Shown here: in pieces, positions 16,543 through 39,579 of the stretch | How positions within the stretch are numbered: position 1 is the stretch's first letter | Layout: each line of letters starts with the position of its first letter | Source: a virus | Taxonomy: Duplodnaviria > Heunggongvirae > Uroviricota > Caudoviricetes | DNA: 57,747 nucleotides | Strand: one strand, 5' to 3' | Virus record (IMG/VR): IMGVR_UViG_2917393062_000003 | Span: 1 to 57,747 of that record | Made by a program: the position numbers and the translations under genes | The notes under the pieces: generated by a model | Seen by the model: the letters and a program-made list of their open reading frames with translations, nothing else | Told to the model about the DNA's origin: nothing | The model's database searches: none

Positions 16543-16902
16543 ATGCGTATAGAGCTTGTTTTGCCTTACCCGCCGACGGTGAACACCTACTGGCGACGTC
16601 GTGGCAGCACATATTTTGTATCAAAAGCCGGTGAGCGTTATCGTCGGGATGTGGCGCTCATTGTTCGCCAGCAGCGACTGAAATTAAACCTGTCCGGAAG
16701 GCTGGCAATAAAAATTATTGCAGAGCCACCGGATAAGCGCCGCCGAGACCTGGACAATATCCTGAAAGCTCCACTGGATGCGCTGACGCATGCGGGACTA
16801 CTCATAGACGACGAGCAGTTTGATGAAATCAATATTGTGCGTGGTCAGCTCGTTCCTGGTGGGCGGCTGGGGATAAAAATCACAGAGCTGGAGTGCGCAT
16901 GA
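16543..16902 (+). CDS. rusA: Holliday junction resolvase RusA
   Basis: 119 aa; DKRRRDLDNILKAPLDALTHAG matches RusA catalytic region. Confidence 0.85.
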   Translation: MRIELVLPYPPTVNTYWRRRGSTYFVSKAGERYRRDVALIVRQQRLKLNLSGRLAIKIIAEPPDKRRRDLDNILKAPLDALTHAGLLIDDEQFDEINIVRGQLVPGGRLGIKITELECA

Positions 16903-17588
16903 ATTACCAGTATTTACAGTTTGTTCGTGAGCAACTCATGATTGCCACCGCCGATTTGAGTGGAGCAACAAAAGGACAGCTTGAGGCCTGGCAGGAGAAT
17001 GCCATGTTTGAAACAGGGCGTTACAGGCGTAAAAAAATCCGGTACCGCGATGAAGTGACCGGAAAAATGATAACGCGGGATAATCCACCAATCCCGGGAA
17101 AACAATCGCTGGCGAAAGGTTCGTCAATTCCTCTGGTAAGTCAGGTTGAGTTTTCGACATCATCATGGCGACGGGCAGTTCTGTCTCTTGAAGAACATCA
17201 TAAAGCCTGGTTGTTGTGGTGTTACAGCGGCAGCATTTGCTGGGAACACCAGATCGCGATAACGCAGTGGGTGTGGCATGAATTTAACGCACAATCCGGT
17301 ACCAGAAAAATTGCAGGGAAAACGCTGGAGCGCCTGAAAAAATTAATCTGGCTGGCGGCACAGGATGTGAAGAGTGAGCTGGCTGGGCGTGAAACTTATG
17401 AATATCAGGAACTGGCATTACTGGCGGGAGTAACAACAAAAAACTGGTCCAAAACATTTACTGGTCACTGGGTTGCAATGAAACATATTTTCCACCGTCT
17501 GGATAGTGAGGCTTTATTGTTTGTGATGAGAACGCGTTCAGAACAAAAGGCGGCATTTTCAAAGCAAAGTGTTGCAAAAGTAGATTAA
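16899..17588 (+). CDS. putative late-gene antiterminator (Q-like), assigned mainly by position
   Basis: about 230 aa immediately after rusA and before a terminator and the lysis genes; no Cys4 zinc finger seen. Confidence 0.45.
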   Translation: MNYQYLQFVREQLMIATADLSGATKGQLEAWQENAMFETGRYRRKKIRYRDEVTGKMITRDNPPIPGKQSLAKGSSIPLVSQVEFSTSSWRRAVLSLEEHHKAWLLWCYSGSICWEHQIAITQWVWHEFNAQSGTRKIAGKTLERLKKLIWLAAQDVKSELAGRETYEYQELALLAGVTTKNWSKTFTGHWVAMKHIFHRLDSEALLFVMRTRSEQKAAFSKQSVAKVD

Positions 17589-21702: not shown

Positions 21703-22185
21703 ATGTCAGGACCCCCGAAAACCCCGCCACGCCTGCATTTGATACGAGGCAACCCCTCAAAGCGCCCCGTTAAAGACCCAAAAAAAACCGCTAAAAAGGA
21801 TGAAAAAGGTCTCCCTAAAATTCCGCAACATTTAGGGTCGCAGGGGAAGTACTGGTTCAGGCGAATGGCGGAAGAACTGAATGCGGAAGGGATCATTTCT
21901 CAGCTTGATGCGCGTGCACTCGAGTTACTGGTGGAAGCCTACACCGAATACCGGCATCACTGCGAAACACTTGATGCTGAGGGTTATACCTACCGCACGG
22001 AAACGCAGAACGGTGATGTGCTGATTAAGGCACACCCGGCTGCTGCGATGAAAGCGGATGCCTGGAAGCGGATCCGGGCGATGCTTGCAGAGTTTGGTAT
22101 GTCACCGGCAAGCCGGGCGAAAGTAAATACCGCCGGATCGGATGATGTTGATCCGCTGGCGGAGCTTTTAAAAGCGAGAGACTGA
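21703..22185 (+). CDS. terminase small subunit
   Basis: 160 aa; paralogous to 36131-36487; directly upstream of terL. Confidence 0.7.
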   Translation: MSGPPKTPPRLHLIRGNPSKRPVKDPKKTAKKDEKGLPKIPQHLGSQGKYWFRRMAEELNAEGIISQLDARALELLVEAYTEYRHHCETLDAEGYTYRTETQNGDVLIKAHPAAAMKADAWKRIRAMLAEFGMSPASRAKVNTAGSDDVDPLAELLKARD

Positions 22186-23270
22186 TGGCAAAAGTGGCTG
22201 ACGGGATCCGCTACGCCGAACGTGTTGTTGCAGGAGAAATTGTCGCTGGCGAATTTGTCCGTCTGGCCTGCCAGCGTTTTCTTGATGATCTGAAGTACGG
22301 CGAAGAGCGGGGGATTTATTTCAGTGAACCCCGTGCGCAGCACATCCTGAATTTCTACAAATTTGTGCCCCATGTAAAAGGGGCGCTGGCAGGCCAGCCC
22401 ATTGAACTGATGGACTGGCATGTATTTATCCTCATTAATATTTTTGGTTTTGTCATTCCGCTGGTCAATGAAGAGACCGGGGAAGTTGTCATGCGCAGCG
22501 ATGGCAGCGGACGTCCGGTGATGGTGCGCCGGTTCCGGACGGCGTACAACGAAGTCGCCCGTAAAAACGCAAAATCAACCCTGTCATCGGGTATCGGCCT
22601 GTATATGACGGGGGCAGATGGTGAAGGCGGTGCTGAGGTGTATTCAGCCGCAACCACGCGTGACCAGGCCAGAATTGTGTTTGAAGACGCCAAAAATATG
22701 GTCAGAAAAGCCCGGTCGACACTCGGGCGGTTGTTTGATTTCAACAAGCTGGCGATTTACCAGGAGCAGAGCGCATCAAAATTTGAACCGCTTTCCTCGG
22801 ATGCAAACAACCTGGACGGTCTGAACATCCACTGCGCCATTATTGATGAGCTGCATGCTCATAAAACCCGTGACGTGTGGGACGTTCTGGAAACGGCAAC
22901 CGGTGCCCGTCTGCAGTCCCTTTTATTTGGCATCACCACGGCTGGCTTTAACAAGGAAGGGATTTGTTACGAGCAACGCGATTACGCCATCAAGGTATTG
23001 CGAGGCTATAACAGCGACGTGGAGGGCGCGGTAAAAGACGACTCCTACTTTGCAATTATTTACACGCTCGATGAGGGAGATGATCCGTTTGATGAAACGG
23101 TCTGGCAGAAAGCGAATCCCGGCCTGGGCATCTGTAAACGCTGGGATGATCTGCGTCGTCTGGCGAAAAAGGCGAAGGAGCAGGTCTCGGCACGGGTGAA
23201 TTTTTTCACGAAGAAAGTAACATCACGCCGTAACAGCAGTGCGGCCTGTCCTGATTTTTTTAGTAACTAA
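22185..23270 (+). pseudogene. terminase large subunit, N-terminal part, interrupted at about 23212 by the inserted element
   Basis: aligns with the first ~315 aa of the intact TerL at 36471-38132, then runs into 19 codons of element DNA and a stop. Confidence 0.8.
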
Positions 23271-23342
23271 ATGAAAGAAAAAGATTTTTTCTTTTTCGTC
23301 GTTTTTGTTTTTTCTGGATGGTTCTGGCTGTTTTCATCATTT

Positions 23343-23363
23343 GTGTATTGCACTGTGTATTGC
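23343..23363. repeat. 21-bp subterminal repeat (tandem TGTGTATTGC units), left copy; candidate integrase arm-type site
   Basis: GTGTATTGCACTGTGTATTGC here and GTGTATTGCGCTGTGTATTGC at 38553-38573, direct orientation. Confidence 0.5.
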
Positions 23364-23383
23364 AAAAACGGGTTATAAATCAC

Positions 23384-24607
23384 ATGGCGCTAAACAAACT
23401 GAGCGATAAAAAACTTCGTTCCCTGCTTGGGCGCAGGAGTGAGAGGCAGGAAACCATCGCTGATGGTAACGGGCTTTCGGTACGGGTCAGTAAATACGGA
23501 TGTGTTAGTTTTGTTTTCTTTTACAGACTGGCGGGAAGGGGAACCGCGCCCATCTGGCTGACACTTGGAAAATATCCTGATCTGAGTCTCAAATCAGCGA
23601 GAGAGATGCGCGATCAGTGTCGAACTTGGCTTGCGGAGGGCAGAGATCCACGGATTCAGATAAAAATTGAACGGGAAGCCACCTTGCAACCTGTTACCGT
23701 TCGTGAGGCACTTGAATACTGGCTTGATAATTATGCAATGGATAAGCGTAGGGGAGCAGAACATATCAGGCAGTGCTTTGGTAAACATATTTATCCGGTG
23801 ATTGGTCATGTACCACTTAGTGATTGCTCTATATCTATGTGGATCAAGTGTTTTGACAAAATAAAAAAAGTAGCACCTGTACAGGCCGGAGCTTTGTTGC
23901 GTATATCAAAACAGGCGCTTAAATTTTGTAGGGTAAGAAAATACGCGATTAGTCATGAAATTGATGATCTTGAGGTCTGTGATGTGGGAAAAAAGTCTGC
24001 GCGAAGAAGCAGGGTTTTAACAGATGATGAAATCAGAGATTTATGGCGAAGTATTAATACTGATTATGACAATCACGAATTATCATATGAAAACCGAATT
24101 ATTTTACGTTTCCTGGTAGTTTTTGGTTGTCGACTGTCAGAAGTATTACTGTCGTCCTGGGTAGAGTGGGATTTTGATAAGAAATTATGGCGCGTTCCCG
24201 CTGATCATAGCAAAAATGGCAGGGAAATAATCAGACCGATTCCTGATGGCATGTTTAACTGGTTAGTTACGTTAAAAAAAATAACAGGTAACAAAGAAAA
24301 TGTGATTGGGTTTGATATGCGTCAGTGTACGGCAAGCGTAACTATCGGTAAGACATGGAAAAGGATGAAACACTCGGAGAAATGGACGGCGCATGATATG
24401 CGAAGAGTGTTTGCCACAAAACTAAGTGATCATGGTTTTGAACATAATGTGGTTGAACAGTTGCTTGGGCACACATTAGGCGGTGTTGCCGGGGTTTATA
24501 ACAGAAGCCAGTATATGGACAGAAAAAAAGAAGCTATGAACTGGTGGTACGACTATCTGAATAAGCAAATTAGTGGTGACAGTAATGATTCAAATAGTTA
24601 CGCGTGA
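23384..24607 (+). CDS. P4-like tyrosine integrase (N-terminal arm-binding-type domain)
   Basis: about 408 aa from MALNKLSDKKLRSL; catalytic motifs RLSEV, HDMRRVFAT, GGVAGVYNRSQY. Confidence 0.85.
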   Translation: MALNKLSDKKLRSLLGRRSERQETIADGNGLSVRVSKYGCVSFVFFYRLAGRGTAPIWLTLGKYPDLSLKSAREMRDQCRTWLAEGRDPRIQIKIEREATLQPVTVREALEYWLDNYAMDKRRGAEHIRQCFGKHIYPVIGHVPLSDCSISMWIKCFDKIKKVAPVQAGALLRISKQALKFCRVRKYAISHEIDDLEVCDVGKKSARRSRVLTDDEIRDLWRSINTDYDNHELSYENRIILRFLVVFGCRLSEVLLSSWVEWDFDKKLWRVPADHSKNGREIIRPIPDGMFNWLVTLKKITGNKENVIGFDMRQCTASVTIGKTWKRMKHSEKWTAHDMRRVFATKLSDHGFEHNVVEQLLGHTLGGVAGVYNRSQYMDRKKEAMNWWYDYLNKQISGDSNDSNSYA

Positions 24608-24806
24608 AGAACTTGAAAATGATAAAACAATCGACAGGATGATTAAGGAAGATGAATGTGCATGGTTAACAGCTCTTGGCAGGAGACACAGAGCATTACT
24701 TGAAAAGGAAGGAAAATTTCCACGTAAAATATGTATTGGCCCACAAACAAAAGTCTGGCGCTTATCTGAGGTGCTGGAATGGGTAAAGGGTGAATGGAAA
24801 CCCTGA
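24585..24806 (+). CDS. AlpA-family regulator
   Basis: EGKFPRKICIGPQTKVWRLSEVLEWV pattern; start ambiguous (24573, 24585 or 24639). Confidence 0.6.
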   Translation: MIQIVTREELENDKTIDRMIKEDECAWLTALGRRHRALLEKEGKFPRKICIGPQTKVWRLSEVLEWVKGEWKP

Positions 24807-24830
24807 ACTAAATTAAATGAGATATAATCA

Positions 24831-24855
24831 ACCCGTCTTTTGGCGGGTTTTTTTA
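24831..24855 (+). terminator. intrinsic terminator-like hairpin abutting the second alpA-like gene
   Basis: acccgtc-tttt-ggcgggt followed by 7 T. Confidence 0.4.
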
Positions 24856-24869
24856 TAGGTGATATTTTT

Positions 24870-25148
24870 ATGCAAAAATTTATTTATCCTACACCCGAAG
24901 AACGCATTCAGATTCTGAAAGATCATGGCGAACCGTATGATCGCCGTATACGCGAACATGAGTGTGCCAATCGTACCGGGCTTTCAAGAAGCAGACGTTG
25001 GGTACTTGAACAGGAGGGAGCATTTCCTGCTCGTGCTCATTTAGGGAAAGTGTCTGTTTCCTGGTTGCTCTCTGATGTGCTCTGGTGGGTTATGCATCCG
25101 CCAGGAGTAAAGGAAGTAAACAGCCCATACAAAAACGCCAATAAGTAA
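24870..25148 (+). CDS. second AlpA-family regulator
   Basis: EQEGAFPARAHLGKVSVSWLLSDVLWWV pattern. Confidence 0.6.
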   Translation: MQKFIYPTPEERIQILKDHGEPYDRRIREHECANRTGLSRSRRWVLEQEGAFPARAHLGKVSVSWLLSDVLWWVMHPPGVKEVNSPYKNANK

Positions 25149-25158
25149 TTACCGACAA

Positions 25159-25186
25159 CCCCGCACCACGCAATGCGGGGTTTTTT
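25159..25186 (+). terminator. rho-independent terminator
   Basis: ccccgca-ccacgcaa-tgcgggg followed by 6 T. Confidence 0.65.
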
Positions 25187-25205
25187 GTATGTGAGGTAGA
25201 AAGTG

Positions 25206-25799
25206 ATGAATAAAAATATTGCCGCGACGGGCAAGGGTGACGCACGTCATATGAAAAAATTCTGTGATATTCGTGATCTGGTCGTTCTGCGCTTTGATAG
25301 TGTGAACGTTCGCGTGGTGTATCTGAACGGCGATCCGTGGTTTGTTGGCGCTGATGTGTGTGCGGCGCTGGAAATTAGCAACGTTACCGATGCTGTTTCA
25401 GTTCTGGATAGCGATGAGGTAATGACCCTAGCTTTAACCGAGGGTCATTCAGGTAAGCGTGGTGGTGCCAGAAGTTGGAATGTTGTATCAGAATCAGGTT
25501 TTTACAAGTTGATCGCCAGAAGTCGCAAAGCTGTTAATCCTAGCACGTTCGCCCATCGTTTCAGTAATTGGGTATTCAGAAATGTGATACCGGGTATCAG
25601 AAAAACGGGGGCTTATGGTATCCCGTGGGGCGCATTACAGGATTTTTCCCGCCGCAAAGAGCAATACCAGATAAGTGCCAGCGAGAAGGGGAGGGAGCTA
25701 CAGGCATGTAAGCGCAAAAAGCGTGAGCTGGAGGAAGAAGAAAAAAGGCTGATACGTGAATACCAGCCTGAGTTTTACTTTGGTGAGCGTATTCAGTAA
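25206..25799 (+). CDS. Bro-N domain protein (antirepressor-like)
   Basis: N-terminal Bro-N pattern FVGADVCAALEISNVTDAVS...FYKLIARS...FAHRFSNWV. Confidence 0.7.
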   Translation: MNKNIAATGKGDARHMKKFCDIRDLVVLRFDSVNVRVVYLNGDPWFVGADVCAALEISNVTDAVSVLDSDEVMTLALTEGHSGKRGGARSWNVVSESGFYKLIARSRKAVNPSTFAHRFSNWVFRNVIPGIRKTGAYGIPWGALQDFSRRKEQYQISASEKGRELQACKRKKRELEEEEKRLIREYQPEFYFGERIQ

Positions 25800-26449
25800 C
25801 CACACGCGGTGTTGATTATACGGTACATCGTGTTGACCGGGAAGCTACCCACCAGCAAGGCAAAATCTTCTGCTAAAAAATGACATATGACCAGTCGTCC
25901 GGAAAGCATGAAATTTTACAAAAATGGAAAATGAAGATTTTTATTGTGCTGGTGGGTAAAAACAAAAAGCGCCCCGTTACCGGAGCGCCATTGCGAACAA
26001 TTAACCTACTGCGCAAAAAATGAATCTGTGCGGGGGGATTATATCAACCGTGGTCGAAATGACCATAGTTGCAGGATAACAGGCAAAACAAAGGCCACCC
26101 GCTACGGTGGCCCCTCGACACAAGCTACACGTTATCCCCAACGCATGAGCATAACCAACAATGCCACATTTACGGCTGGTGGGCAAATCCTGAGCTGTTC
26201 TGTAATTACAGGAACTACGGCATTGTCGCGGTTAGGTTATGCTCAACTTTTTTTCAACTCTATATCGCAAGCACGCCGTAATATATCGCCTTCATTGCTT
26301 CCGCAAAGATTCTTTTTCTCGAAGCATGATTTTAAGATAAAGGCGGCGACAATTAGAACAATCGCACAGAGTGCACAATTTTTAAGTTTTGGCATCTTTT
26401 ACTCCTATGGTTGCCGCCGTGATTCCTCACACCACGGCGCTGATAGTAA

Positions 26450-26629
26450 TTATTCTGATTCTTTGGCCTTGCGGCGCTGGCGGCGTTTGATCTCGCCACG
26501 CATGGCTGTAACGATAAACTGCGCGTCTGTTTCGTTTTCCTCTTTGACCAAATTCATTTCGCTTAAAACTTCTAGAGGGATTCTAGCCGTTTTTTGTTGT
26601 GATTTGTTGTTGGTTGTACCCGTTGGCAT
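26450..26629 (-). CDS. small regulator, possibly ribbon-helix-helix type
   Basis: 59 aa from MPTGTTNNK; very strong SD AAGGAGG; divergent from the rightward operon. Confidence 0.45.
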   Translation of the reverse strand: MPTGTTNNKSQQKTARIPLEVLSEMNLVKEENETDAQFIVTAMRGEIKRRQRRKAKESE

Positions 26630-26691
26630 TACTAGCCTCCTTACTGTTAGGTGGCGTTCAGTATACGTAGAAAAAAAAAATAAAAAAAAGC

Positions 26692-26742
26692 TTGAAGTGC
26701 AAGTCACCTAAAAGTAGCATAATCCTCAAAGGTGACTTGCAC
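26692..26742 (+). promoter_or_regulatory. rightward promoter bracketed by a perfect 13-bp inverted repeat (operator)
   Basis: -35 TTGAAG, 17-nt spacer, -10 TAGCAT; inverted repeat GTGCAAGTCACCT (26697-26709) / AGGTGACTTGCAC (26730-26742); upstream A-tract. Confidence 0.5.
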
Positions 26743-26823
26743 CTTAAAGACAAAGCCCCGCAAGTGTCGTTACCACTCACAGGGCTTCTAACCACCAACG
26801 ATAACGAGAGTATCGAGGTAGCT

Positions 26824-27030
26824 ATGTTAAATCATACCACACACCCGCAAGGGCGGGACTCGCACAACCTGAATAAATATATCTGGCGTTTTATCGCTCT
26901 GAGCACGGCACAACCGCGCGTGATTACCATTGAGGCCACCAGTGAACAGGAAGCCTGTCAGCAATCACCGGCTGGCTGCGTGATGGTATTCGCCGCCCAT
27001 ATTCGTCAGGGGGTGCACCATGTGCAATAA
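26824..27030 (+). CDS. hypothetical small protein (satellite rightward operon gene 1)
   Basis: ATG 26824 with SD GAGG. Confidence 0.4.
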   Translation: MLNHTTHPQGRDSHNLNKYIWRFIALSTAQPRVITIEATSEQEACQQSPAGCVMVFAAHIRQGVHHVQ

Positions 27031-27256
27031 CACCCGTCCGGACTCAGCCGCCGAAGCTATCAGAACGCTAATGCACGCGCTGATTGATATTTCATGCACG
27101 GCAGCAACCGCAGAAAAACACATTACCAGAGAGACGGAATATGCAGGGGCGATAATCCCGCATTCGCTGGCATATGTGCAGCTTAGTGCCGACATGGCAC
27201 TGGATGAGGCAGGCAAAATTCTTACCGCAGATATCCAGGGGGGACGCCATGCATAA
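27020..27256 (+). CDS. hypothetical small protein
   Basis: overlapping, translationally coupled ORF. Confidence 0.4.
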   Translation: MCNNTRPDSAAEAIRTLMHALIDISCTAATAEKHITRETEYAGAIIPHSLAYVQLSADMALDEAGKILTADIQGGRHA

Positions 27257-27461
27257 TCATGAAGCGCACTTACCTGTAGTGCTGAATGTGCCATCAGATT
27301 ATACGGGGCGCGTACTGGTGTATCTGGAAAAAGGCCGGGTTAAATGCCAGTGCCGTTTAATGGAAAACGAATTTATCAGCACTCTTGCGGGATTTTCTGA
27401 AATGCTCACTAAATCTGGTGTTAGTGCAGACCAGTTACGCGGGGGCGATTATGCGAAATAA
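27249..27461 (+). CDS. hypothetical small protein
   Basis: ATG 27249 overlapping upstream stop. Confidence 0.4.
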   Translation: MHNHEAHLPVVLNVPSDYTGRVLVYLEKGRVKCQCRLMENEFISTLAGFSEMLTKSGVSADQLRGGDYAK

Positions 27462-27669
27462 ACGTGATATTGAAGACCTGGCATTTGAAGCCCTGCACTC
27501 TGCGAAAAAGATCAGGGAAGTCGTCAATATGTGGATGAACAGCCTTAGCACCGATGAATCCGATAGCAGAGAAGAAATTCTTATTTCTTTGTTGTTAGAC
27601 CTGGCAAATACACAGGTTTCTCTGACATCTGATATTGAGCTCGCCGCTAAAAAGCTGCCTCTGGAGTAA
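27451..27669 (+). CDS. hypothetical small protein
   Basis: ATG 27451 overlapping upstream stop. Confidence 0.4.
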   Translation: MRNKRDIEDLAFEALHSAKKIREVVNMWMNSLSTDESDSREEILISLLLDLANTQVSLTSDIELAAKKLPLE

Positions 27670-27799
27670 AAAAACATGAAAAAGAAAAAATTCTGGCTTT
27701 ACTGCCAGCGGTCACGCTCGGCCTGAAATCCGCCCCGGTGATATTTTCCGGGATAAATACGGCAGCACGATAACGATTAAAACTGTCGATGATTTTCGT

Positions 27800-27991
27800 G
27801 TGACCTATATCCGCGAAGGTTATGCGCATCCCTGCGTGTCGTCACATATGCGCTTTGACAGGGAGTTCACCTTGGTAAGCAAAGCACCACCAGCAGAATT
27901 AAGCGACATCGACAGAATCATGCGCGTTACAGGAATGGAACGCATTAAGGCAGTACGTGAAATTATTCGTGAACGGGGAAAGGCAAAATGA
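27800..27991 (+). CDS. hypothetical small protein (GTG start)
   Basis: 63-aa ORF ending in ATGA overlap with the replication gene; weak RBS. Confidence 0.25.
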   Translation: MTYIREGYAHPCVSSHMRFDREFTLVSKAPPAELSDIDRIMRVTGMERIKAVREIIRERGKAK

Positions 27992-30111
27992 AGCGCGCAC
28001 CAAACTTAAAGCACCAGCCAGCCGATAAAATGACGGAGGTTATCATCTTTGCGGGTAGTGATGCGTGGAGCCATGCGAAAGAGTGGCAGGAATGGGCAGG
28101 TAAGCATATTGCCGCCGACAATGTGCCGCCTGTCGTTCTGTCAGATGAACACCTGAAAGATATTACCGGTTATCAAATTATTGATGATAGTCGTCAGTGT
28201 GTGCGTGTTTACCGCGCAGGGCACATCACTGAACGTAGCCTTACACAGATCGTCACGTTGCTGGCTGTGGCTGGCGTGAAGACCGTATACGAATACGCGG
28301 GGATAACTGACACCAGCCCGGCGGATTTATCCGACCAGTTGCCTCGCCTCAAAGACGAATACGAGCGCGGGGAAAGTCTGGTGTTGCCCTTAAAGAAAAA
28401 AATCACAGAAAGCCCGGGTGATGATGAATTAAAGCCCCGCGTTGAAAGCCGCGCCGATGGTGTTTTCTGGGTAACGCCAAAAGTGGATAAGCAGTCAGGC
28501 GAAATTATCCGGCCTGAGACGTGGTTATGTTCCCCGCTTGAACTACTGGGAACGGGGACAATCGGTAAAGAGCATTACCGCGTGATGCGCTGGAAAAAAT
28601 TCGCAAATCATGAAGTCATCACAATGGCGGTTCCGTGCGGTGGCATTGGCGACCGTGACGGCTGGCGGCTGCTGAAAGACCACGGACTGAACGTAACAAC
28701 TAACGGCAAAAATAGGGCTATCCTGGCTGACTGGATGCAGTTAAGCGGAAGCCATGAGGAATGGCAGTTAAGCACAACAACGGGCTGGCATTTTGGCGCG
28801 TACATCATGCCGGACGGTTCGGTCATTGGTGATTGCGAAAAGCCAGTCCTGTTTACCGGAAAAACGGCTGCTGTTAATGGCTATTCCGTGGCAGGAACGG
28901 CGGAGGGTTGGCGCGATACCGTGGCGCGGCTGGCTGGTGGTAATCCGTCCATGATGCTGGGTGTGGCGGTATCGTTATCCGCACCATTAATCGGGCTGGT
29001 GGGTGCTGACGGCTTCGGGGTACATCTTTTCGAACAGTCATCGGCAGGGAAAACCACCACACAGAACATCGCATCCAGTTTATGGGGAGAGCCGGACGCA
29101 CAACGGCTGACCTGGTACGGCACGGCGTTAGGTATCGCCAACGAGGCCGAAGCACATAATGACGGGCTGTTACCCCTGGATGAAATAGGTCAGGCCGGAA
29201 ACGCGCGGGAGGTGTCCACGTCAGCCTATACGCTGTTTAACGGTTCCGGGAAATTACAGGGGGCAAAGGACGGCGGCAACAGGGAGATAAAACACTGGCG
29301 AACGGTGGCAATCAGTACCGGAGAAATGGACGTTGAAACATTCCTCAAAACGGAAGGGATAAAAGTCAAGGCGGGGCAGCTTGTCCGCCTGCTTAACGTG
29401 CCAATGGAAAAAGCCACACAATTTCACGAATACAGCACCGGAAAGGCACACGCAGACGCGTTAAAGGATGCCTGGACAGAAAATCACGGGGCGGCGGGGC
29501 GTGAATGGGTTAAATGGTTGGCAGACCATCAGCAGGAGGCAAAGGACACGGTAAGGGCATGCCGTGAACGGTGGCGCAACCTGATACCGGAGAGCTACGG
29601 CGAGCAGGTACACCGCGTGGGTGAGCGTTTCGCCATACTGGAGGCCGCGCTTGTGCTTTCCGGTCATGTTACTGGCTGGGATGTTCAGGCGTGCCGCGAT
29701 GCCATACAGCATAATTTTTATGCCTGGGTGAAGGAGTTCGGCACGGGTAACAGGGAGTTTAAACAGATGGTTGAACAGGCAGAGGCTTTTTTAGCGTCGT
29801 TCGGATTCAGCAGATACCTTCCGTGGCCCAACACCGACGAGCGTGATTTACCGATTAAAGAGCTTGCCGGATACAGAAAGGGGAGTATCAGAAACGAAGA
29901 TGACGAGTTCCGTTTTTACACGTTCCCGCATGTATTTGAGGGTGAGATAGCACAGGGATTTAATCCGTCTCACTTTGCCCGCGCGTTGAGTGCTGCCGGA
30001 ATGCTGGAAGCGGGTAACGATCGCCGTTACAAGAAAAAGGCGCTCGGCAAAATTGGGGGGAAGCAGCATGTTTTTTACGTGCTGATGTTCCAGCCTGAGG
30101 CAGAAGATTAA
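27988..30111 (+). CDS. satellite replication protein with P-loop NTPase (DUF927-like primase/helicase class)
   Basis: 707 aa; Walker A SSAGKTT; iterons immediately downstream; family name from memory. Confidence 0.6.
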   Translation: MKRAPNLKHQPADKMTEVIIFAGSDAWSHAKEWQEWAGKHIAADNVPPVVLSDEHLKDITGYQIIDDSRQCVRVYRAGHITERSLTQIVTLLAVAGVKTVYEYAGITDTSPADLSDQLPRLKDEYERGESLVLPLKKKITESPGDDELKPRVESRADGVFWVTPKVDKQSGEIIRPETWLCSPLELLGTGTIGKEHYRVMRWKKFANHEVITMAVPCGGIGDRDGWRLLKDHGLNVTTNGKNRAILADWMQLSGSHEEWQLSTTTGWHFGAYIMPDGSVIGDCEKPVLFTGKTAAVNGYSVAGTAEGWRDTVARLAGGNPSMMLGVAVSLSAPLIGLVGADGFGVHLFEQSSAGKTTTQNIASSLWGEPDAQRLTWYGTALGIANEAEAHNDGLLPLDEIGQAGNAREVSTSAYTLFNGSGKLQGAKDGGNREIKHWRTVAISTGEMDVETFLKTEGIKVKAGQLVRLLNVPMEKATQFHEYSTGKAHADALKDAWTENHGAAGREWVKWLADHQQEAKDTVRACRERWRNLIPESYGEQVHRVGERFAILEAALVLSGHVTGWDVQACRDAIQHNFYAWVKEFGTGNREFKQMVEQAEAFLASFGFSRYLPWPNTDERDLPIKELAGYRKGSIRNEDDEFRFYTFPHVFEGEIAQGFNPSHFARALSAAGMLEAGNDRRYKKKALGKIGGKQHVFYVLMFQPEAED

Positions 30112-30132
30112 CCCCTGTGTGAGGTGAAAAGT

Positions 30133-30257
30133 TGCGGGTTATGCGGGTTATCCTGTGTATAAGTGCATTAACTGTATGAATAAAAAGGAAATCAATAACC
30201 CGCACGTAACCCGCAAAACGGCAGTTATAACCCGCAAAAGTGCGATTATAACCCGCA
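30133..30257. repeat. iteron cluster (TAACCCGCA units in both orientations), candidate replication origin
   Basis: two inverted-orientation units at 30133-30150 and four direct units between 30196 and 30257. Confidence 0.6.
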
Positions 30258-30320
30258 GAATTTCACCGTAAGGGTGTAAACAAGCGTAACAATCAACGTT
30301 AAAACCGGAGAACAGACAGC

Positions 30321-30743
30321 ATGACAGCACAGATAGCAGCTTACGGGCGGCTGGTGGCTGACCCGCAGTTAAAGACCACCAGCAAAGGGACACAAATGGC
30401 GATGGCGAGTATGGCAGTTCCCCTGCCGTGCAGCCAGGCAGATGACGGAACGGCGACGATGTGGTTATCCGTCCTGGCGTTTGGCAGACAGGCCGACGCA
30501 CTGGCAAAACACCACAAAGGCGAACTGGTGAGCGTGGCGGGTAACATGCAGGTAAGCCAGTGGACAGGTCAGAACGGCGAAATGCGGCAGGGTTGGCAGG
30601 TCATCGCAGACAGCGTAATCAGTGCGCGAACGGCGCGACCGGGCGGCAAAAAAGGCCAGCAGGGCCAGGCTACTGACGCACTGAACAGGGCAAAACAACA
30701 GGCGGGGAATGATGATCCGTACGGGGACGGGATACCGTTTTAA
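30321..30743 (+). CDS. SSB-like OB-fold protein with acidic C-terminal DGIPF tip
   Basis: 140 aa; Gly/Gln-rich linker and C-terminal DDPYGDGIPF resembling the SSB DDDIPF tail. Confidence 0.55.
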   Translation: MTAQIAAYGRLVADPQLKTTSKGTQMAMASMAVPLPCSQADDGTATMWLSVLAFGRQADALAKHHKGELVSVAGNMQVSQWTGQNGEMRQGWQVIADSVISARTARPGGKKGQQGQATDALNRAKQQAGNDDPYGDGIPF

Positions 30744-30758
30744 GCAGTGAGGTACAGC

Positions 30759-31040
30759 ATGATTAAAGACAGCAAAGCGGAAGAACTGGAGGCTAAAGGG
30801 CTGTACCGGAGAGCGGCGGCGCGTTGGGCTGATGTTATGTGGCTGGTGAGCACTGACAAGGAGCGCGAACAGGTGGCAAAGCGTCGCGCGGAATGTATCC
30901 GTAAGGCAGCGCGCCAACCAGTCATACCGGATAATTTCGGAATACTGAAAGAGGCCATAAACCGCACACATACCGGGATGGGCTTACAGAAACCTGGCGG
31001 TGAGATGTTCAGGAACTACCCGAAAAAAAAGGATAATTGA
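30759..31040 (+). CDS. PerC-like regulator (tentative)
   Basis: MIKDSKAEELEAKGLYRRAAARWADVM; family assignment from memory. Confidence 0.4.
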   Translation: MIKDSKAEELEAKGLYRRAAARWADVMWLVSTDKEREQVAKRRAECIRKAARQPVIPDNFGILKEAINRTHTGMGLQKPGGEMFRNYPKKKDN

Positions 31041-31085
31041 TAACGGTTGTTAACTGTTTCTGGTATCGTGGCAGCAGGAGGAAAC

Positions 31086-31334
31086 ATGCCAGTGACATTT
31101 GAAGAAGTCCAGCAACATAAAAAGCTTCATGATTTTGATGATCTGGAAACCACGACAGTAAAAAAATATCGCCGGCTGCTTTCTTCCGATGCGTTATTTT
31201 TTGTGGATCATCATGATTTTCTGCGTAGCTCACTGACCGGGGAAATTTTCGCAACCAACCGTGAGCAGGTGGAAGCGATGATCGAATATCTGTGGAAAAT
31301 AAGGCGCAGAATGCGTGATCCCGTGAAACGGTAG
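31086..31334 (+). CDS. hypothetical protein
   Basis: ATG 31086 with SD AGGAGG. Confidence 0.45.
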   Translation: MPVTFEEVQQHKKLHDFDDLETTTVKKYRRLLSSDALFFVDHHDFLRSSLTGEIFATNREQVEAMIEYLWKIRRRMRDPVKR

Positions 31335-31343
31335 AATAATAAT

Positions 31344-31372
31344 GGCCTGGTATTTTCCAGGCCATTTTTTTT
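31344..31372. terminator. rho-independent terminator between convergent genes
   Basis: ggcctgg-tatttt-ccaggcc followed by 8 T. Confidence 0.65.
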
Positions 31373-31844
31373 AGAAGTCGATCTCTGTATCGCGATTAAA
31401 TTCATCGCTAAGGTAAAGTGCTTCGCTTGGGCATTTTCCGTTTTCCAGTAATGTTTCCCAGAAATCTTTATCGAAACACCCCTCAAGATACAGATAGCGG
31501 CAGATGTGAAGTAAATCACTTCGTGTCCATCCGTGCATGCTGCTACTTGTTACACCATATTCACTTTCTAGTTTATAGAATGTGAGCGCCTCCCGGTCGT
31601 GCCAGGCTTTGCACAGACGATCGTATATCTTTTTAGCTTTGTTTTTAGATGTGCCGAAAAACTCTTCGTAAATTTCATGTGGGCGAGCAGGAATACTTCC
31701 GTCGCCATCCTGCAAGAAAGGATAAACATCTGCCTCCCAGGCATACACGTAAGAATCGCTGAACTCATCATAGTGTTTACCAAGGTGGAGAATCTGCAAT
31801 CGTTGCTGAATGAACATTGCTTTTTTCAGTTCATTTTCTGACAT
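31371..31844 (-). CDS. opposite-strand cargo protein of unknown function (candidate accessory or defence gene)
   Basis: 157 aa; only minus-strand gene in the satellite core; noticeably lower GC than neighbours; own upstream region. Confidence 0.55.
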   Translation of the reverse strand: MSENELKKAMFIQQRLQILHLGKHYDEFSDSYVYAWEADVYPFLQDGDGSIPARPHEIYEEFFGTSKNKAKKIYDRLCKAWHDREALTFYKLESEYGVTSSSMHGWTRSDLLHICRYLYLEGCFDKDFWETLLENGKCPSEALYLSDEFNRDTEIDF

Positions 31845-32138
31845 AGTTCGTTCCTCCTGATTGACGAGCAGAAAATGTACGGAACAGCTTATTTATTTTT
31901 TCAGGTTTTGTAAATTATTTGTTCGTGGTTGTTCCAGGTTGTTCGGTGATTCTGGCTGATGTTTACATACTGATTTTTATGTATATGTTGGCGTGTGGCA
32001 CTCAGACGTGAGCCGCCACAATGCCGCCTGACCCCCTGCGCGATGCCGGGTTGATCTGCGAGATGCCGGGAGTGTCGGGCGGCGCTCCCTCCGTGTTGGT
32101 TTCACGTCCTGAATCTTAACCAATACGAGAAAACCTTC

Positions 32139-33284
32139 ATGAAGAAATTAATCGAACTCCGCCAGCAAAAAACCGCCCTGAAAAACCAGATGCGATCCCT
32201 GCTGGAAAAAGCCGACAGTGAAAACCGCAGCCTGAACGATGACGAGGGCAAACAGTTTGATGAACTGCGTGCAAAAGCCGATTCCCTCGACACAGAAATT
32301 TCCCGTCTTGAAGCTGTTGCGGATGAAGAACGTAACCAGCCAGGTGTTTCCGTCGAAGAGAAAATCACCAAAGACGAACTGCGCTCTTACATTCTGACCG
32401 GGGAAACCCGCAACCTGTCCGGCAGTGTCCCGGCTGATGGTGGTTATACGGTTATCCCGGAACTGAACAGAGAAATTATGCGTCAGCTTTCTGATGAATC
32501 GGTGATGCGTAAAATCTGTACCGTTAAAACCATTCACAGCAATGAATTTAAGCAACTGGTTTCTGCCGGGGGTGCGGTCGTTGAACACGGCGAAGAAGGT
32601 GCGGCACGTAACCAGACGGCAACACCAAAACTGAATGAAGTCAGTATCCGCCTGTATCCGATCTACGCTTACCCGAAAACCACTCAGGAAATTATCGATT
32701 TTTCCGAAGTCGATATTATGGGCTGGTTATCTTCTGAAATTGGCGACACTTTCGTTGATACCGAAGAAATGGATCTGGTTTCTGGTGATGGCGAGAAAAA
32801 AGCTAAAGGTTTCCTGGCTTTTCCGCGCACTGCGGATAACGACAAAACCCGTCCTTTCGGTACGCTCCAGACGAAAAAAGTTACTGGCAGTCTCAGCGCC
32901 GACATGCTGATTGACCTGAAATTTACGCTGCGCAATAAGTACCGCAAAAAAGCTGTATGGGTGATGAACTCAAATACAGCCGCCTCCGCACAAAAACTGA
33001 AAAATGCCACTGGTGATTACATCTGGCGCGATCGTTTACAGGCTGGTGATCCTGATTCTCTGCTGGGGCTTCCGGTTGAATATCTGGAATTTATGCCGGA
33101 CGGTGTGATTGCAGTAGGTGACTTTAAGCGCGGTTATTTCATCGTTGACCATGAAACCGGTACGCGTACCCGTCCGGATTTCAGCGAACCCGGATTCATT
33201 AACATCTATACCCAGAAATATCTGGGCGGTGGTGTGGTGGATTCGAACGCCATCAAGATTCTGGAAATTCAGGCTGGCAAGTAA
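32139..33284 (+). CDS. HK97-family major capsid protein (satellite)
   Basis: 381 aa; paralogous in architecture to prophage MCP at 41463-42686. Confidence 0.8.
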   Translation: MKKLIELRQQKTALKNQMRSLLEKADSENRSLNDDEGKQFDELRAKADSLDTEISRLEAVADEERNQPGVSVEEKITKDELRSYILTGETRNLSGSVPADGGYTVIPELNREIMRQLSDESVMRKICTVKTIHSNEFKQLVSAGGAVVEHGEEGAARNQTATPKLNEVSIRLYPIYAYPKTTQEIIDFSEVDIMGWLSSEIGDTFVDTEEMDLVSGDGEKKAKGFLAFPRTADNDKTRPFGTLQTKKVTGSLSADMLIDLKFTLRNKYRKKAVWVMNSNTAASAQKLKNATGDYIWRDRLQAGDPDSLLGLPVEYLEFMPDGVIAVGDFKRGYFIVDHETGTRTRPDFSEPGFINIYTQKYLGGGVVDSNAIKILEIQAGK

Positions 33285-33333
33285 TGAGCAAAGGGGGCTT
33301 CGGCCTCCTTTTTCAGCTTTATGGAGTACACCG

Positions 33334-33894
33334 ATGAAAAATACCGATTTTGAAATCCGTACATCTGAACTGACCGCCAGTGATAAAAAACTGGTGGGTT
33401 ATGCCGTTCGCTGGAACAGCCTTTCAGAAATTATCTGGGACGAATTCCGCGAACAGTTTACGCCGGGGGCTTTTGCTGACTATCTGGCGGCGGGTAATGA
33501 TGTGCGCTGCCTGTATGAGCATGACTATACCCGACTGCTGGGGCGCACCAAATCCGGAACACTGGTACTGACTGAGGACAACACCGGGCTACGTTTTGAA
33601 CTGACACCGCCTGATACCCAGCTTGGAAAAGATGTGCTTACGCTGGTGGAGCGTGGCGACATTACAGGAATGAGCTTTGGCTTTCGCGCATTATGCGAAG
33701 AATGGAATATCGCGCAAAAACCGTATCTGCGCACTGTTACCGCCGCAGAACTTCGTGAAATCACGATAACGTCAATGCCTGCTTATCCCGAATCTGGCGT
33801 GGAGATTGCCCGCCGTTCGTTGTTTGCACAGCACCCTGAATTACGCCCGACAGGAAATAATCGTCATCGCTGGGCTGAACTGGCGGGGTTGTGA
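33334..33894 (+). CDS. HK97-family prohead protease (satellite)
   Basis: about 186 aa from MKNTDFEIR with SD GGAG; paralog of 40798-41448. Confidence 0.75.
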   Translation: MKNTDFEIRTSELTASDKKLVGYAVRWNSLSEIIWDEFREQFTPGAFADYLAAGNDVRCLYEHDYTRLLGRTKSGTLVLTEDNTGLRFELTPPDTQLGKDVLTLVERGDITGMSFGFRALCEEWNIAQKPYLRTVTAAELREITITSMPAYPESGVEIARRSLFAQHPELRPTGNNRHRWAELAGL

Positions 33895-33895
33895 T

Positions 33896-35110
33896 ATGTG
33901 GTGGCCTTTTAGTCGTAAAAAAAGCGATCTGCGTAACCTGTCCATTGATGATTTTCTGGCGCTGTCCGGCGTACCGAATACCGGATCCGGAGAATATGTT
34001 TCTGCCGGGACGGCTGAATCATTGCCTGCTGTGATGAACGCGGTTTCTGTCATCGCTGAGGCGGTGGCCACGATGCCGTGTTATCTGTATCTGGTACGTA
34101 ATGACAAGGGCAGGGAGGCGCGGGAATGGCTGGACAGTCACCCGGTCGATATTCTGCTGAATGAGCAGCCTAATTCGTGCCAGACACCTTACCAGTTTAA
34201 ACGCACAATGATGCGTCACTGCCTGCTGAACGGTAACGCCTATGCGGTTATTGAGTGGGGGCGGGACGGTCAGCCAAAATCACTTCATCCTTATGCGCCG
34301 GGTTGTGTTGTACCGGAACGCACTGGCGCACACAAATACCGCTATACCATCACCGAACCCTATACAGGAACGGTGCGCACGTATTTACAGGAAGAAGTCC
34401 TGCATCTCCGCTATGCCTCGGATGATGGCTTTCTGGGACGTTCCCCCGTCACGATTTGCCGTGAGGCGCTGGGGCTTGGCCTTGCTCAACAGCGTCACGG
34501 AGCCAGCATTATGAAAGATGGCATGATGGCGGCAGGGGTTATTACGTCAGGCGAATGGCTGGACGGCGTGAAAGGTAAACAGGCATTAGACGCCCTGGAA
34601 CGCTACAAGGGGGCGAAAAATGCCGGAAAAACGCCAATCCTTGAAGGGGGCATGGATTACAAGCAACTGGGGATGAGTAACCAGGATGCGGAATGGCTGG
34701 CCTCCCGTCGCTTCTCCATTGAAGACATCGCCCGGATGTTCAACGTATCGCCTATTTTTCTGCAGGAATACAGCAACAGCACCTACAGCAATTTCAGCGA
34801 GGCAAGCCGCGCGTTTCTGACCATGACAATGCGCCCATGGCTGGCGAACTTCGAACAGCAAATTAAGGCCGCTTTGCTGGTGGCTTCTCCCGTACCTGGT
34901 ACCCGTTATCTGGTTGAGTTTGATTCAGCCGATTTATTACGCGCCACCCCTACCGAACGTTACGCCACGTATGAGAAAGGGATTAAGAACGGGATCATGA
35001 ATCCGAACGAAGCCCGCGAACGTGAGGGGATGCCGCCGCGTGAAGGTGGCGACGAATTCAGCCAGGCATGGAAGCAGACGGTGGAAATTAAAGGTGAAAA
35101 AGATGAGTGA
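33896..35110 (+). CDS. portal protein (satellite)
   Basis: about 404 aa from MWWPFSRKK; paralog of prophage portal 39579-40820. Confidence 0.75.
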   Translation: MWWPFSRKKSDLRNLSIDDFLALSGVPNTGSGEYVSAGTAESLPAVMNAVSVIAEAVATMPCYLYLVRNDKGREAREWLDSHPVDILLNEQPNSCQTPYQFKRTMMRHCLLNGNAYAVIEWGRDGQPKSLHPYAPGCVVPERTGAHKYRYTITEPYTGTVRTYLQEEVLHLRYASDDGFLGRSPVTICREALGLGLAQQRHGASIMKDGMMAAGVITSGEWLDGVKGKQALDALERYKGAKNAGKTPILEGGMDYKQLGMSNQDAEWLASRRFSIEDIARMFNVSPIFLQEYSNSTYSNFSEASRAFLTMTMRPWLANFEQQIKAALLVASPVPGTRYLVEFDSADLLRATPTERYATYEKGIKNGIMNPNEAREREGMPPREGGDEFSQAWKQTVEIKGEKDE

Positions 35111-35402
35111 AGAAAAAATTACACCTGATGAGGTCAGGGCACATCTTCGCCTTGATAACTTCTACGATGAAGGCGAACTTCTGAAAATGTATACCGATGC
35201 GGCGCTGGAAGCCTGCCAGAAGCATATCGGGAAACGTTTTGAAGACGGGCTGGAATTTACCCCGGCAATACGTGTTGGTTGCCTGATGTACATTGCTTTC
35301 CTGTACGAGAACAGGGAAGCGGTTTCACCTGTGGAGCAGTCTGAACTGCCTATGGCTATTTCTGCGCTCTGGTCGGTTTATCGTGATGTAGGGGTGTACT
35401 GA
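35103..35402 (+). CDS. head-tail connector (gp6-like) protein (satellite)
   Basis: 99 aa; HLRLDNFYDEGELLK pattern shared with prophage 42733-43056. Confidence 0.65.
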   Translation: MSEEKITPDEVRAHLRLDNFYDEGELLKMYTDAALEACQKHIGKRFEDGLEFTPAIRVGCLMYIAFLYENREAVSPVEQSELPMAISALWSVYRDVGVY

Positions 35403-35842
35403 TGCCGTGGCAACCATTAAGGCGATGCACTGAGCCGGGCTGTAATAAGCGCGTGAAGTCCGGCAAGTGCGAAGATCACAGGCGGGCTGCATGGCGTGCA
35501 GAGGATGCCAGACGGGGACACCGCCGCGCGCGCGGGTATTCCCGACAGTGGGACAAATACCGCGCCCTGTACCTGAGCAAAAACCCGTTATGCGTGCGTT
35601 GTCTGGCTAAGGGGATTTATACGCCAGCTCTTGTGGTGGATCACATCATTCCCATCAATGGCGGCGGTGATGTTCTCTTCTGGCCTGAGTGGAATCACCA
35701 GGCATTGTGCCAGACGTGCCACAACCGTAAGACGACACGGGAAGATCCAGCCACGAAAGCGAACCGTAAGGCGGGCATGTATCGCGAGCAGGAAGAACGG
35801 GCGGCACATCGTAACGACTGGATGTATGGCGATGATGACTGA
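35402..35842 (+). CDS. HNH endonuclease (satellite, terminase-associated)
   Basis: 146 aa; Cys-rich, VDHIIPINGGG...CQTCHNRKT motif. Confidence 0.8.
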   Translation: MPWQPLRRCTEPGCNKRVKSGKCEDHRRAAWRAEDARRGHRRARGYSRQWDKYRALYLSKNPLCVRCLAKGIYTPALVVDHIIPINGGGDVLFWPEWNHQALCQTCHNRKTTREDPATKANRKAGMYREQEERAAHRNDWMYGDDD

Positions 35843-36011
35843 ACAGGAGCAAAACAGGCTGATACGTGGACTGATAAGGCAGCGTGACACATGGAAGGCA
35901 CAGGAGACAGGGCACAAAGCCAACAGGACAGGGCGCACAGAACGCACCACAGCGAAGCGATTAACCGACCGTGACCGCGAGGTCATGGAATGTTTTCGCA
36001 ATCGCTGGTGA
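35826..36011 (+). CDS. hypothetical small basic protein
   Basis: 61-aa ORF overlapping HNH stop. Confidence 0.25.
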   Translation: MAMMTEQEQNRLIRGLIRQRDTWKAQETGHKANRTGRTERTTAKRLTDRDREVMECFRNRW

Positions 36012-36130
36012 GGCCGTCAGAGGGGGTGGGGGAGGTTTTCAGGACAAAACCGTCCCTGCCGGACACCGACCGCCTCCTCAAATTTTTGTGCACGGAAATT
36101 TTTTTGAAAATAATTGGGCGAAAAAAGAAC

Positions 36131-36487
36131 ATGGCAAGACCACCAAAAGCCCCCGCTTACCTGGATGAAATCGCGGTCAGGCAGTGGAAGGAAAAATCGC
36201 GCCAGCTTTCCGGGCGGGAAGACCTTACCCCCGCCGACTGGAGCAATCTGGAACTGTATTGCGTTAACTACTCCATATACCGCAAAGCCGTCGAAGACCT
36301 TGCGACGCGCGGCTTCAGCATTGTTAACAGTCAGGGCAGCGAGAGCAGAAACCCCGCCCTGAGCGCAAAGGCTGACGCGGAAAGAATAATGATCAAAATG
36401 GCTTCTTTGCTGGGTTTTGACCCGGTAAGCCGCCGCAGAAATCCACCGGAAACAGAGGAAGAGGACGAGCTTGACCGCCTGGCATGA
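36131..36487 (+). CDS. terminase small subunit (satellite)
   Basis: start MARPPKAPAYLDEIAVRQW; paralog of 21703-22185. Confidence 0.65.
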   Translation: MARPPKAPAYLDEIAVRQWKEKSRQLSGREDLTPADWSNLELYCVNYSIYRKAVEDLATRGFSIVNSQGSESRNPALSAKADAERIMIKMASLLGFDPVSRRRNPPETEEEDELDRLA

Positions 36488-38132: not shown

Positions 38133-38212
38133 CGGAATGGATGAGAGAGGACAATGCTCATTTAATGGAATAAATTTTCAGTATTACCGGTACCCACTTT
38201 CAGGGATGTTTT

Positions 38213-38370
38213 TGCGGGTTATTTGAGGGGGAGGTGCGGGTTATTTTGAATGTCTTGCGGGTTACATTCTGGCTGATATTTAAATACGTTGTTTTTTAAC
38301 GCATTGATATTAAAGAGTAAAAAATACTTAGCACGCGAAGATAACCCGCTAACCCGCATAACCCGCGCTG
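38213..38370. repeat. second iteron cluster (AACCCGC units), crr-like
   Basis: three rc units at 38213-38264 and three direct units at 38341-38370; same repeat unit as 30133-30257. Confidence 0.55.
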
Positions 38371-38552
38371 TTTTGTATATATATACGAAAAATTGCATTC
38401 AGGGGGGGATCGAAATTTCTACTGCCTCTTATCTCTTTGAGTGCTCACCTCGTCAGATTGTTACACACAAGAAATAAAAAATGCTTCGCGATGGTAGGTC
38501 GAATCACTGTATCAAAAAACGGTGTGTATCAGCATTAAAACAATACAGATAC

Positions 38553-38573
38553 GTGTATTGCGCTGTGTATTGC
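38553..38573. repeat. 21-bp subterminal repeat, right copy
   Basis: GTGTATTGCGCTGTGTATTGC; one mismatch to left copy at 23343-23363. Confidence 0.5.
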
Positions 38574-38659
38574 TTGATGATTTATAAAGACTGTTTTTTC
38601 ATGTTAAACGATTGATATACAGGTGATTTTAAAAAACTTGAAATATTCTCACGAAACAC

Positions 38660-39396: not shown

Positions 39397-39579
39397 ATGT
39401 TTCTGATAATTCTCACGCCACTGGTGGGCGTGCTGGGGGCGCTTTTGCTGTCGTATGGCGCATGGCTGATTTATCCCCCGGCAGGTTTTGTTGTTGCAGG
39501 GGCGCTGTGCCTGTTCTGGTCGTGGCTGGTTGCGCGTTATCTCGATCGCGGTCAGCGGGTCGCCTCCGGAGGTGAGTAA
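39397..39579 (+). CDS. small membrane protein
   Basis: 60 aa, hydrophobic, SD GAGGG; between terL and portal. Confidence 0.4.

Follow-up and report, generated by a model that had tools for sequence, protein, structure and literature searches.

How does a phage satellite that sits inside a prophage keep its replication operon silent, and which protein does the silencing? These questions are raised by positions 26450-26830 of the viral DNA record IMGVR_UViG_2917393062_000003, whose whole length of 57,747 nucleotides we refer to as the window. The region forms part of an element that, judged by its gene content, is a capsid-forming phage-inducible chromosomal island (cf-PICI), inserted into a lambdoid prophage at its terminase gene. 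To our knowledge, the activator AlpA is the only one of such regulators of Gram-negative PICIs to have been studied. The global repressor of one Gram-negative island, EcCICFT073, has been called "unclear", and the difference from the Gram-positive islands a mystery (PMC6092414).

Here we propose that the region is probably the maintenance (immunity) switch of the cf-PICI, in which a 59-aa protein and three operators silence the rightward replication operon. The proposal draws on the sites themselves, on the conservation of their positions and of the promoters on which they lie, on their concerted change with the protein, and on the protein's predicted fold.

Candidate operators on two back-to-back promoters

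The control region was compared across 93 parsable loci, comprising 69-74 distinct control regions; 11 of the loci were drawn from other enterobacterial genera and 80 from viral contigs, in addition to E. coli loci, so that the related loci span at least 12 genera plus viral contigs. A sequence-only reading of the window had described a rightward promoter with a TTGAAG -35, a TAGCAT -10 and an upstream A-tract, enclosed by a perfect 13-bp inverted repeat, and a divergent 59-aa gene with a very strong ribosome-binding site; each of these features is present, and both the promoter pattern and the gene are conserved.

The rightward promoter, a sigma-70 promoter which heads the operon running from an icd-like gene to the primase gene, has its -35 at 26692-26697 and its -10 at 26715-26720 on the plus strand, with a 17-nt spacer and the -10 lying between the repeat arms; transcription would start at about 26727-26729. 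The pattern TTGAnG, 17 or 18 nt, TAnnnT is kept in the same register in 66 of the 69 distinct control regions (TTGAnG in 64 of the 69). A simple consensus promoter scan of the window, with a threshold of 9 of 12 consensus positions, missed this promoter, since TAGCAT and TTGAAG together score under that threshold; the support for it comes from comparison of the loci. On the opposite strand, the promoter of the small gene has the -10 hexamer TATACT (26660-26665, minus strand) and no good -35, and transcription from it would start at about 26653; 60 of the 69 distinct control regions have this hexamer in the same register. Between the two promoters runs the A-tract (26671-26689), and its A-rich columns are kept in the fixed-register consensus of the related loci. 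The small gene itself (MPTGTTNNKSQQKTARIPLEVLSEMNLVKEENETDAQFIVTAMRGEIKRRQRRKAKESE) occupies 26450-26629 on the minus strand, from the ATG at 26629 to the stop included to 26450, and is preceded by the Shine-Dalgarno sequence AAGGAGG (26636-26642), 6 nt before the ATG.

The two arms of the inverted repeat, GTGCAAGTCACCT at 26697-26709 and AGGTGACTTGCAC at 26730-26742, are separated by 20 nt. No other perfect inverted repeat of at least 13 bp (gap 3-40) occurs in the window, and the 14-mer of the arms is found at these two places only, bar one site with two mismatches at 52649. The view that the repeat is a chance occurrence beside an unrelated small ORF, for which the small size of the features is all that speaks, is refuted and deserves practically no credence: Markov-1 random sequences hold a mean of 0.055 such repeats, with 4% of 200 random sequences having any, and the architecture is kept in the 93 related loci examined.

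Extended outward, the arms become 15-mers with internal two-fold symmetry, and we read them as two copies of a predicted operator of about 15 bp, nGTG-N5-CACn. The first, O1 (AAGTG-CAAGT-CACCT, 26695-26709), lies in the spacer between -35 and -10 and includes the left arm, whereas O2 (AGGTG-ACTTG-CACCT, 26730-26744) includes the right arm and extends from about +2 to +16 relative to the rightward start. A third, degenerate copy that was absent from the sequence-only reading, O0 (AGGTG-GCGTT-CAGTA, 26649-26663), lies over the -10 and the predicted start of the promoter that serves the small gene itself, and is presumed to be the autoregulatory site. Each related locus likewise has three nGTG-N5-CAn copies at fixed positions, summarized by the fixed-register consensus T.GGTG.....CAGTATAC....AAAAA...TTGA.GTG.....CAC. 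The consensus of O0 is GGTG-N5-CAGTATAC, and the conserved CAGTATAC adjoining it reads TATACT on the minus strand, the likely -10 of the small gene. O0 and O1 are 45 +/- 1 bp apart, O1 begins within the conserved -35, and O1 and O2 are 22-27 or 34-39 bp apart.

The relative orientation of the last two sites is not fixed. In the class of the window and in classes D, E and F, O2 is inverted with respect to O1; in classes B, C, G and H, as in the loci L025 and L065, it is a direct copy. No hairpin is therefore conserved, and the perfect inverted repeat is a by-product of two copies lying in opposite orientation in the window's class. The proposal that the inverted repeat is a control element thus stands in part: its arms behave as cognate operators over the 93 loci, but the inversion is not the functional unit, since the copies are direct in many relatives, at other spacing. 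These direct copies, in an arrangement otherwise kept, also led us to reject a function of the repeat as a nucleic-acid hairpin, either an RNA terminator or attenuator or a DNA cruciform, since no hairpin can form there. A transcript of the whole repeat would fold strongly (-22.9 kcal/mol, z -5.6), and the minus strand has a T-run 7 nt after the repeat; however, the conserved -10 sits in the would-be loop, so that the rightward transcript holds the second arm only, and a terminator scan gave nothing in the control region. We consider a hairpin function highly improbable.

A predicted operator code and its probable small-protein partner

The 5-bp N5 core of the sites varies between loci and is nearly constant among the sites of one locus, dividing the elements into about 11 classes, and it maps one-to-one on residues 11-14 of the small protein. 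Residues QQKT accompany the core CAAGT, which is that of O1 in the window; QQLN accompanies CGATT, QALK GGCCA, QMTT TATTT, QQIV GCATT, QSVT TAAGA, LQVS GTGTT, QKMQ GAGCA, QKLQ GGAWTCC and QKMS GGTGC. When groupings are compared with that given by the O1 core, the adjusted Rand index is 0.92 for residues 11-14, 0.48 for the C-terminal part of the protein, 0.38 for its helix A and 0.26 for the leader hairpin of the rightward operon. This covariation over the 93 loci suggests that the repeat arms are the cognate operators of the small protein.

The sites could in principle be bound by another factor, namely AlpA, the Icd-like protein, the primase (through replication iterons) or a host protein. 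AlpA is a known activator of PICI genes (PMC6092414), the PHROG label of the Icd-like family is 'transcriptional repressor', and repeats are used by PICI replication origins. Natural mosaics among the islands argue against each of these candidates. Islands L089 and L092 are nearly identical to the window in Int (99%), in both AlpA proteins (97-99%), in DUF4222 (100%) and in primase (99%), yet they have TAAGA operators and a YlcI just 64% identical to that of the window. Similarly, L026-type islands have GGCCA operators despite sharing the window's leader and an Icd-like protein 83-85% identical to its own, and EcCICFT073 combines the same leader with the same GGCCA operators. Conversely, islands L014, L016 and L017, with a YlcI 97% identical, keep the CAAGT operators next to an unrelated leader, in elements in which no Icd-like homologue is detectable. 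Some 11 class-specific cores are beyond what a host factor can explain, and the iteron-like repeats of the satellite lie elsewhere, at 30207-30248. These mosaics therefore exclude AlpA, integrase, primase, the Icd-like protein and a host factor as the specificity partner and leave the small protein; binding of the sites by another factor is accordingly improbable in our judgement.

Two further features of the cores were noted. In the window the O0 core is GCGTT, and in close relatives GTGTT; these nearly or fully match the core of the LQVS class, which is unrelated. Among islands with mixed cores (L003, L024 and L025), L025 combines a GGAGT core at O0 with two CAAGT cores in direct orientation, and in all three the protein has R11 in place of Q11. 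The likeness of O0 and the mixed-core islands hint at graded affinities or cross-talk.

The small protein belongs to the NCBIfam family NF041551 (YlcI/YnfO): it scores 62.9 bits (E 2e-17) where the cutoff is 30, and its residues 9-50 align to positions 1-42 of the 42-position profile. RefSeq gives the same YlcI/YnfO name to the homologues in L001, L002 and CFT073. No domain match was found in a Pfam search, and tblastn against 50,697 phage records returned no match; the family name does not, by these comparisons, imply close relatives in sequenced phages.

Ribbon-helix-helix dimers bind DNA sequence-specifically by inserting a two-stranded antiparallel sheet into the major groove. The sequence-only reading had called the small protein a possible member of this group, for which the support is consistent but weak. 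An AlphaFold2 monomer model built with 57 homologues (pLDDT 82) has an extended stretch over residues 1-18 followed by helices at 19-28 and 35-58, a topology that would correspond to the strand-helix-helix order, over about 45 residues, of the ribbon-helix-helix (Arc/MetJ/CopG) fold. By hhalign, residues 9-32 align with Arc residues 6-29 (the Arc sequence having been checked against PDB 1arq/1par) at 46% identity over 24 columns, with a pairwise E of 3e-4 and a probability of 40%, whereas a profile search of PDB sequences with the small protein gave no ribbon-helix-helix match. The alignment places positions 12, 14 and 16 on Arc Gln9, Asn11 and Arg13, the base-contacting strand residues of the Arc-operator complex. 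Among the homologues R16 is invariant and residues 12 and 14 are hypervariable; positional entropy is highest at residues 12-14 and in helix A, and residues 46-52 (EIKRRQR) are invariant. Specific DNA binding by the strand of the small protein would thus have indirect support in the covariation of residues 11-14 with the operator core.

The proposed switch and the satellite that carries it

We propose that the 59-aa ribbon-helix-helix protein is made from the weak leftward promoter (-10 TATACT, 26665-26660) and binds its three cognate operators of about 15 bp, with recognition through the N-terminal strand, on which the block of residues 11-14 would set the specificity class. Occupancy of O1, in the promoter spacer, and of O2, at about +2 to +16, would bar RNA polymerase from TTGAAG-17-TAGCAT, and would keep the rightward operon (leader, Icd-like gene, small ORFs, DUF4222 and primase) silent while the island is integrated. 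O0, whose core is degenerate here, lies over the protein's own -10 and start and may provide negative autoregulation at higher protein concentration. We infer binding, autoregulation, and repression rather than activation, the last being favoured because of the positions of the sites, the good -35 and the normal spacer.

An alternative is that the small protein regulates its own leftward unit only, as an antitoxin-like autoregulator, or that it activates the rightward promoter. In most loci a second small ORF does follow the gene on the same strand, and O0 is located at the protein's own promoter. However, the ORF in that place changes from locus to locus and has no match to a toxin or any other family. 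Of the three operators, two sit on the rightward promoter, in positions (spacer and +2 to +16) that would occlude RNA polymerase, and a near-consensus -35 with a normal spacer of 17-18 nt does not have the look of an activator-dependent promoter. We regard this alternative as unlikely, and repression of the rightward operon remains the reading that we prefer.

The second position of the leftward unit is variable. In the window it is taken by a 50-aa hydrophobic ORF (26243-26395, minus strand), 54 nt downstream of the small gene, which is seen in just two other loci and has no family match in Pfam or NCBIfam. In most related islands the ylcI-like gene is followed, about 42-57 nt further on, by a second small ORF (e.g. 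6243-6416 in L096). These ORFs include two recurrent families with a common motif like RFAPCAFALExFLKEY / EKFALEDFVDKY, both without a match in Pfam or NCBIfam, and the 50-aa ORF of the window is unrelated to them. We rejected a type II toxin-antitoxin reading, since the ORF downstream varies from locus to locus and has no match in either database.

For the release of the proposed repression we offer, with low confidence, a route by transcriptional read-through. Helper late transcription, AlpA, or both may drive reading through int, alpA and bro into the replication operon; such transcription would cross the small gene antisense, both bypassing the repressed promoter and interfering with synthesis of the repressor. 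The hypothesis was formed because the satellite is embedded in the helper terL and is co-oriented with the helper late genes. In EcCICFT073, alpA expression depends on the helper and induction is driven by AlpA (PMC6092414).

Several points weigh against the switch that we propose. Published induction of Gram-negative PICIs requires AlpA alone (PMC6092414), and the small protein is without an obvious sensor domain. The O0 core of the window, GCGTT, differs from CAAGT, and L003 and L024 mix two cores, with GGAGT at O0 and O1 and ACTTG at O2. Finally, the gene and its presumed operators are physically adjacent, so that some co-inheritance is expected without any interaction; adjacency adds to linkage, but leaves unexplained both the concerted change of three sites and the recombination junctions just beyond O2.

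The rightward operon opens with a structured leader (26753-26819). A hairpin predicted by folding (26753-26787, plus strand) begins about 10 nt after O2 and is followed by the motif CTAACCA (CUAACCA in RNA; 26788-26794, plus strand), whose core is invariant in an alignment of 28 leaders: the columns C-T-x-A-C-C-A do not vary, and the fifth base of CTAAC does. Of the 7 pairs of the basal helix 5 show compensatory changes, and by such changes the hairpin is kept across otherwise unrelated leader types. A second small hairpin, after the CUAACCA motif, adjoins the Shine-Dalgarno sequence GAGG (26815-26818). The leader is unlike an intrinsic terminator because it is without a U-tract. Action of the leader as a self-targeting antisense element resembling P1 C4 was considered and dropped, since the 6-nt pairing of its hairpin loop (UCGUUA) with the pre-RBS sequence (UAACGA), present in the window, is, by inspection, not kept in other leader types.

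An Rfam search of the control region (26300-27100, E up to 10) gave no C4, CI, isrK or other meaningful match, and hence no sign of antisense-RNA immunity of the C4/CI kind (RF01695, RF01394). The same search finds two pairs of isrK and C4 antisense RNAs elsewhere in the window, at 1001-1183 (minus strand) and 13434-13624 (plus strand), with 71.5-74.3 bits. Each pair is followed by a gene with an ORF6N domain (Bro/KilA network), at 394-951 (minus) and 13628-14221 (plus) respectively. Such pairs amount to immI-like control by RNA, belonging to the prophage or to a neighbouring element, whereas the control proposed for the satellite is of the protein type.

The first gene of the rightward operon (26824-27030, plus strand) encodes the 68-aa Icd-like protein, so assigned by NF033153 (E 3.4e-16), by phrog_6196 and by the RefSeq naming of relatives; its labels conflict, NCBIfam giving a cell-division inhibitor and PHROG (phrog_6196, phrog_1743) a 'transcriptional repressor'. 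It is followed, all on the plus strand, by small ORFs and DUF4222 (27020-27991), the primase (27988-30111), and genes for SSB, PerC, an HK97-type capsid, an S78 prohead protease, portal, HNH, TerS and TerL (30321-38132). A tandem 21-nt repeat (TAACCCGCAAAACGGCAGTTA / TAACCCGCAAAAGTGCGATTA) at 30207-30248, directly after the primase gene, is a candidate for an iteron in the origin of satellite replication. Upstream of the control region lie the integrase gene (23318-24607), two AlpA-family genes in tandem (24573-24806 and 24840-25148) and a Bro-N gene (25203-25799), likewise on the plus strand, the latter three filling 24573-25799 between the integrase and the control region.

By the family matches of its ORFs the element thus joins a PICI left end to its own head and packaging genes, the gene set of a cf-PICI, and this agrees with the earlier claim that the region is part of a phage satellite. 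No tail-gene families turned up among the ORFs scanned from 23318 to 38132. The gene set matches the description of EcCIEDL933 (10.1101/2022.09.08.507074). The element extends from about 23300 to 38600, within the prophage terL, which is split: one piece (22185-23270) holds the ATPase domain and positions 2-63 of the Pfam nuclease profile, and the second (38660-39385) positions 64-283. Prophage genes flank it, with Q (16893-17588) and TerS (21703-22185) on one side and portal, protease and capsid (39579-42686) on the other, all on the plus strand, as are int, alpA and primase of the satellite, which are therefore co-oriented with the prophage late genes. The split terL and these flanking co-oriented genes are the features of a helper-embedded PICI (HE-PICI), a configuration described previously (PMC10111431). 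A direct-repeat search for att sites at the satellite/prophage junctions gave just an unconvincing 11-mer.

Relation to known systems and significance

Small ribbon-helix-helix repressors acting at operators on divergent promoters are a well-known kind of device. A close parallel to the one proposed here is the immI region of P22 (Mnt/Arc), with which the locus would share a ribbon-helix-helix repressor of very small size, encoded divergently from its target operon, operators over back-to-back promoters (Pmnt/Pant in P22) and autoregulation. At the level of residues, R16 (invariant) and positions 12 and 14 (variable) correspond to Arg13, Gln9 and Asn11, with which Arc contacts bases. However, the similarity to Arc and Mnt is marginal and no HMM places the small protein in their sequence family, the sites here are three separate 15-bp units as opposed to one 21-bp operator, and it is a satellite replication module that would be controlled here and an antirepressor gene in P22. 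The omega repressor of pSM19035 (PDB 2bnw) similarly uses repeated sites with indifference to their orientation, but these are contiguous 7-bp heptads, whereas the sites here measure 11-15 bp and lie 22-45 bp apart.

Stl/Rpr, the master repressor of Gram-positive islands, shuts off the rightward PICI operon and loses its activity on binding a helper-phage protein. As the repressor gene does in the Staphylococcus aureus pathogenicity islands (SaPIs), the small gene lies divergent from an operon leading into a primase/replication module, and its presumed role is to keep the island quiescent (PMC6092414). This likeness is limited to position and operator placement, with no sequence relationship; Stl is a much larger helix-turn-helix protein with a domain that binds the helper protein, in contrast to 59 aa without a sensor domain, and int is not co-transcribed with the small gene here.

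In P1 immI (c4-icd-ant) and with P4 CI, a control element occupies the same slot, directly upstream of an Icd-like gene that heads an early or replication operon. C4 and isrK RNAs have also been reported in some Gram-negative PICIs (PMC10111431). In the present locus a protein and its operators appear to replace the antisense RNA, C4/isrK giving no match at E 10. Within the protein's own family, YlcI/YnfO (DUF3950) of the K-12 cryptic prophages DLP12 and Qin share the family model NF041551; K-12 YlcI also has a sequence pattern of the ribbon-helix-helix kind, and its gene is divergent from the neighbouring nohD. The relationship is very distant, with no BLASTP match and an hhalign probability of 11%, and K-12 ylcI adjoins a terminase/cos region rather than a replication operon. 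No homologue of K-12 YlcI was detectable in the helper prophage of the window, and a literature search on the names YlcI, YnfO and DUF3950 found no characterising paper.

What appears to be new is the identity of the repressor, its operator code and their presence in Gram-negative PICIs, including EcCICFT073, which holds the same module with C_RS30120 as the homologue of the small protein; none of this was found in the literature searched, in which no YlcI/YnfO or ribbon-helix-helix protein was linked to these satellites. The small protein is thus a candidate, open to test, for the repressor that Gram-negative satellites of this kind have seemed to lack, and the analysis provides the candidate gene, three mapped predicted operators, two promoters and a predicted recognition code relating residues 11-14 to the 5-bp core.

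More tentatively, and with odds that we would put below even, a YlcI/YnfO-like protein may be the master repressor of Gram-negative PICIs, an analogue of Stl with at least 11 immunity specificities, in which induction would come about through antisense read-through, AlpA-driven or from helper late transcription, and not through a protein antirepressor. About 11 orthogonal protein/operator pairs on a 59-aa scaffold are also possible small repressors for synthetic biology. If the proposal is true, these specificities would let several islands coexist without cross-repression, and one branch of the YlcI/YnfO (DUF3950) family, so far uncharacterised, would gain its first assigned role.

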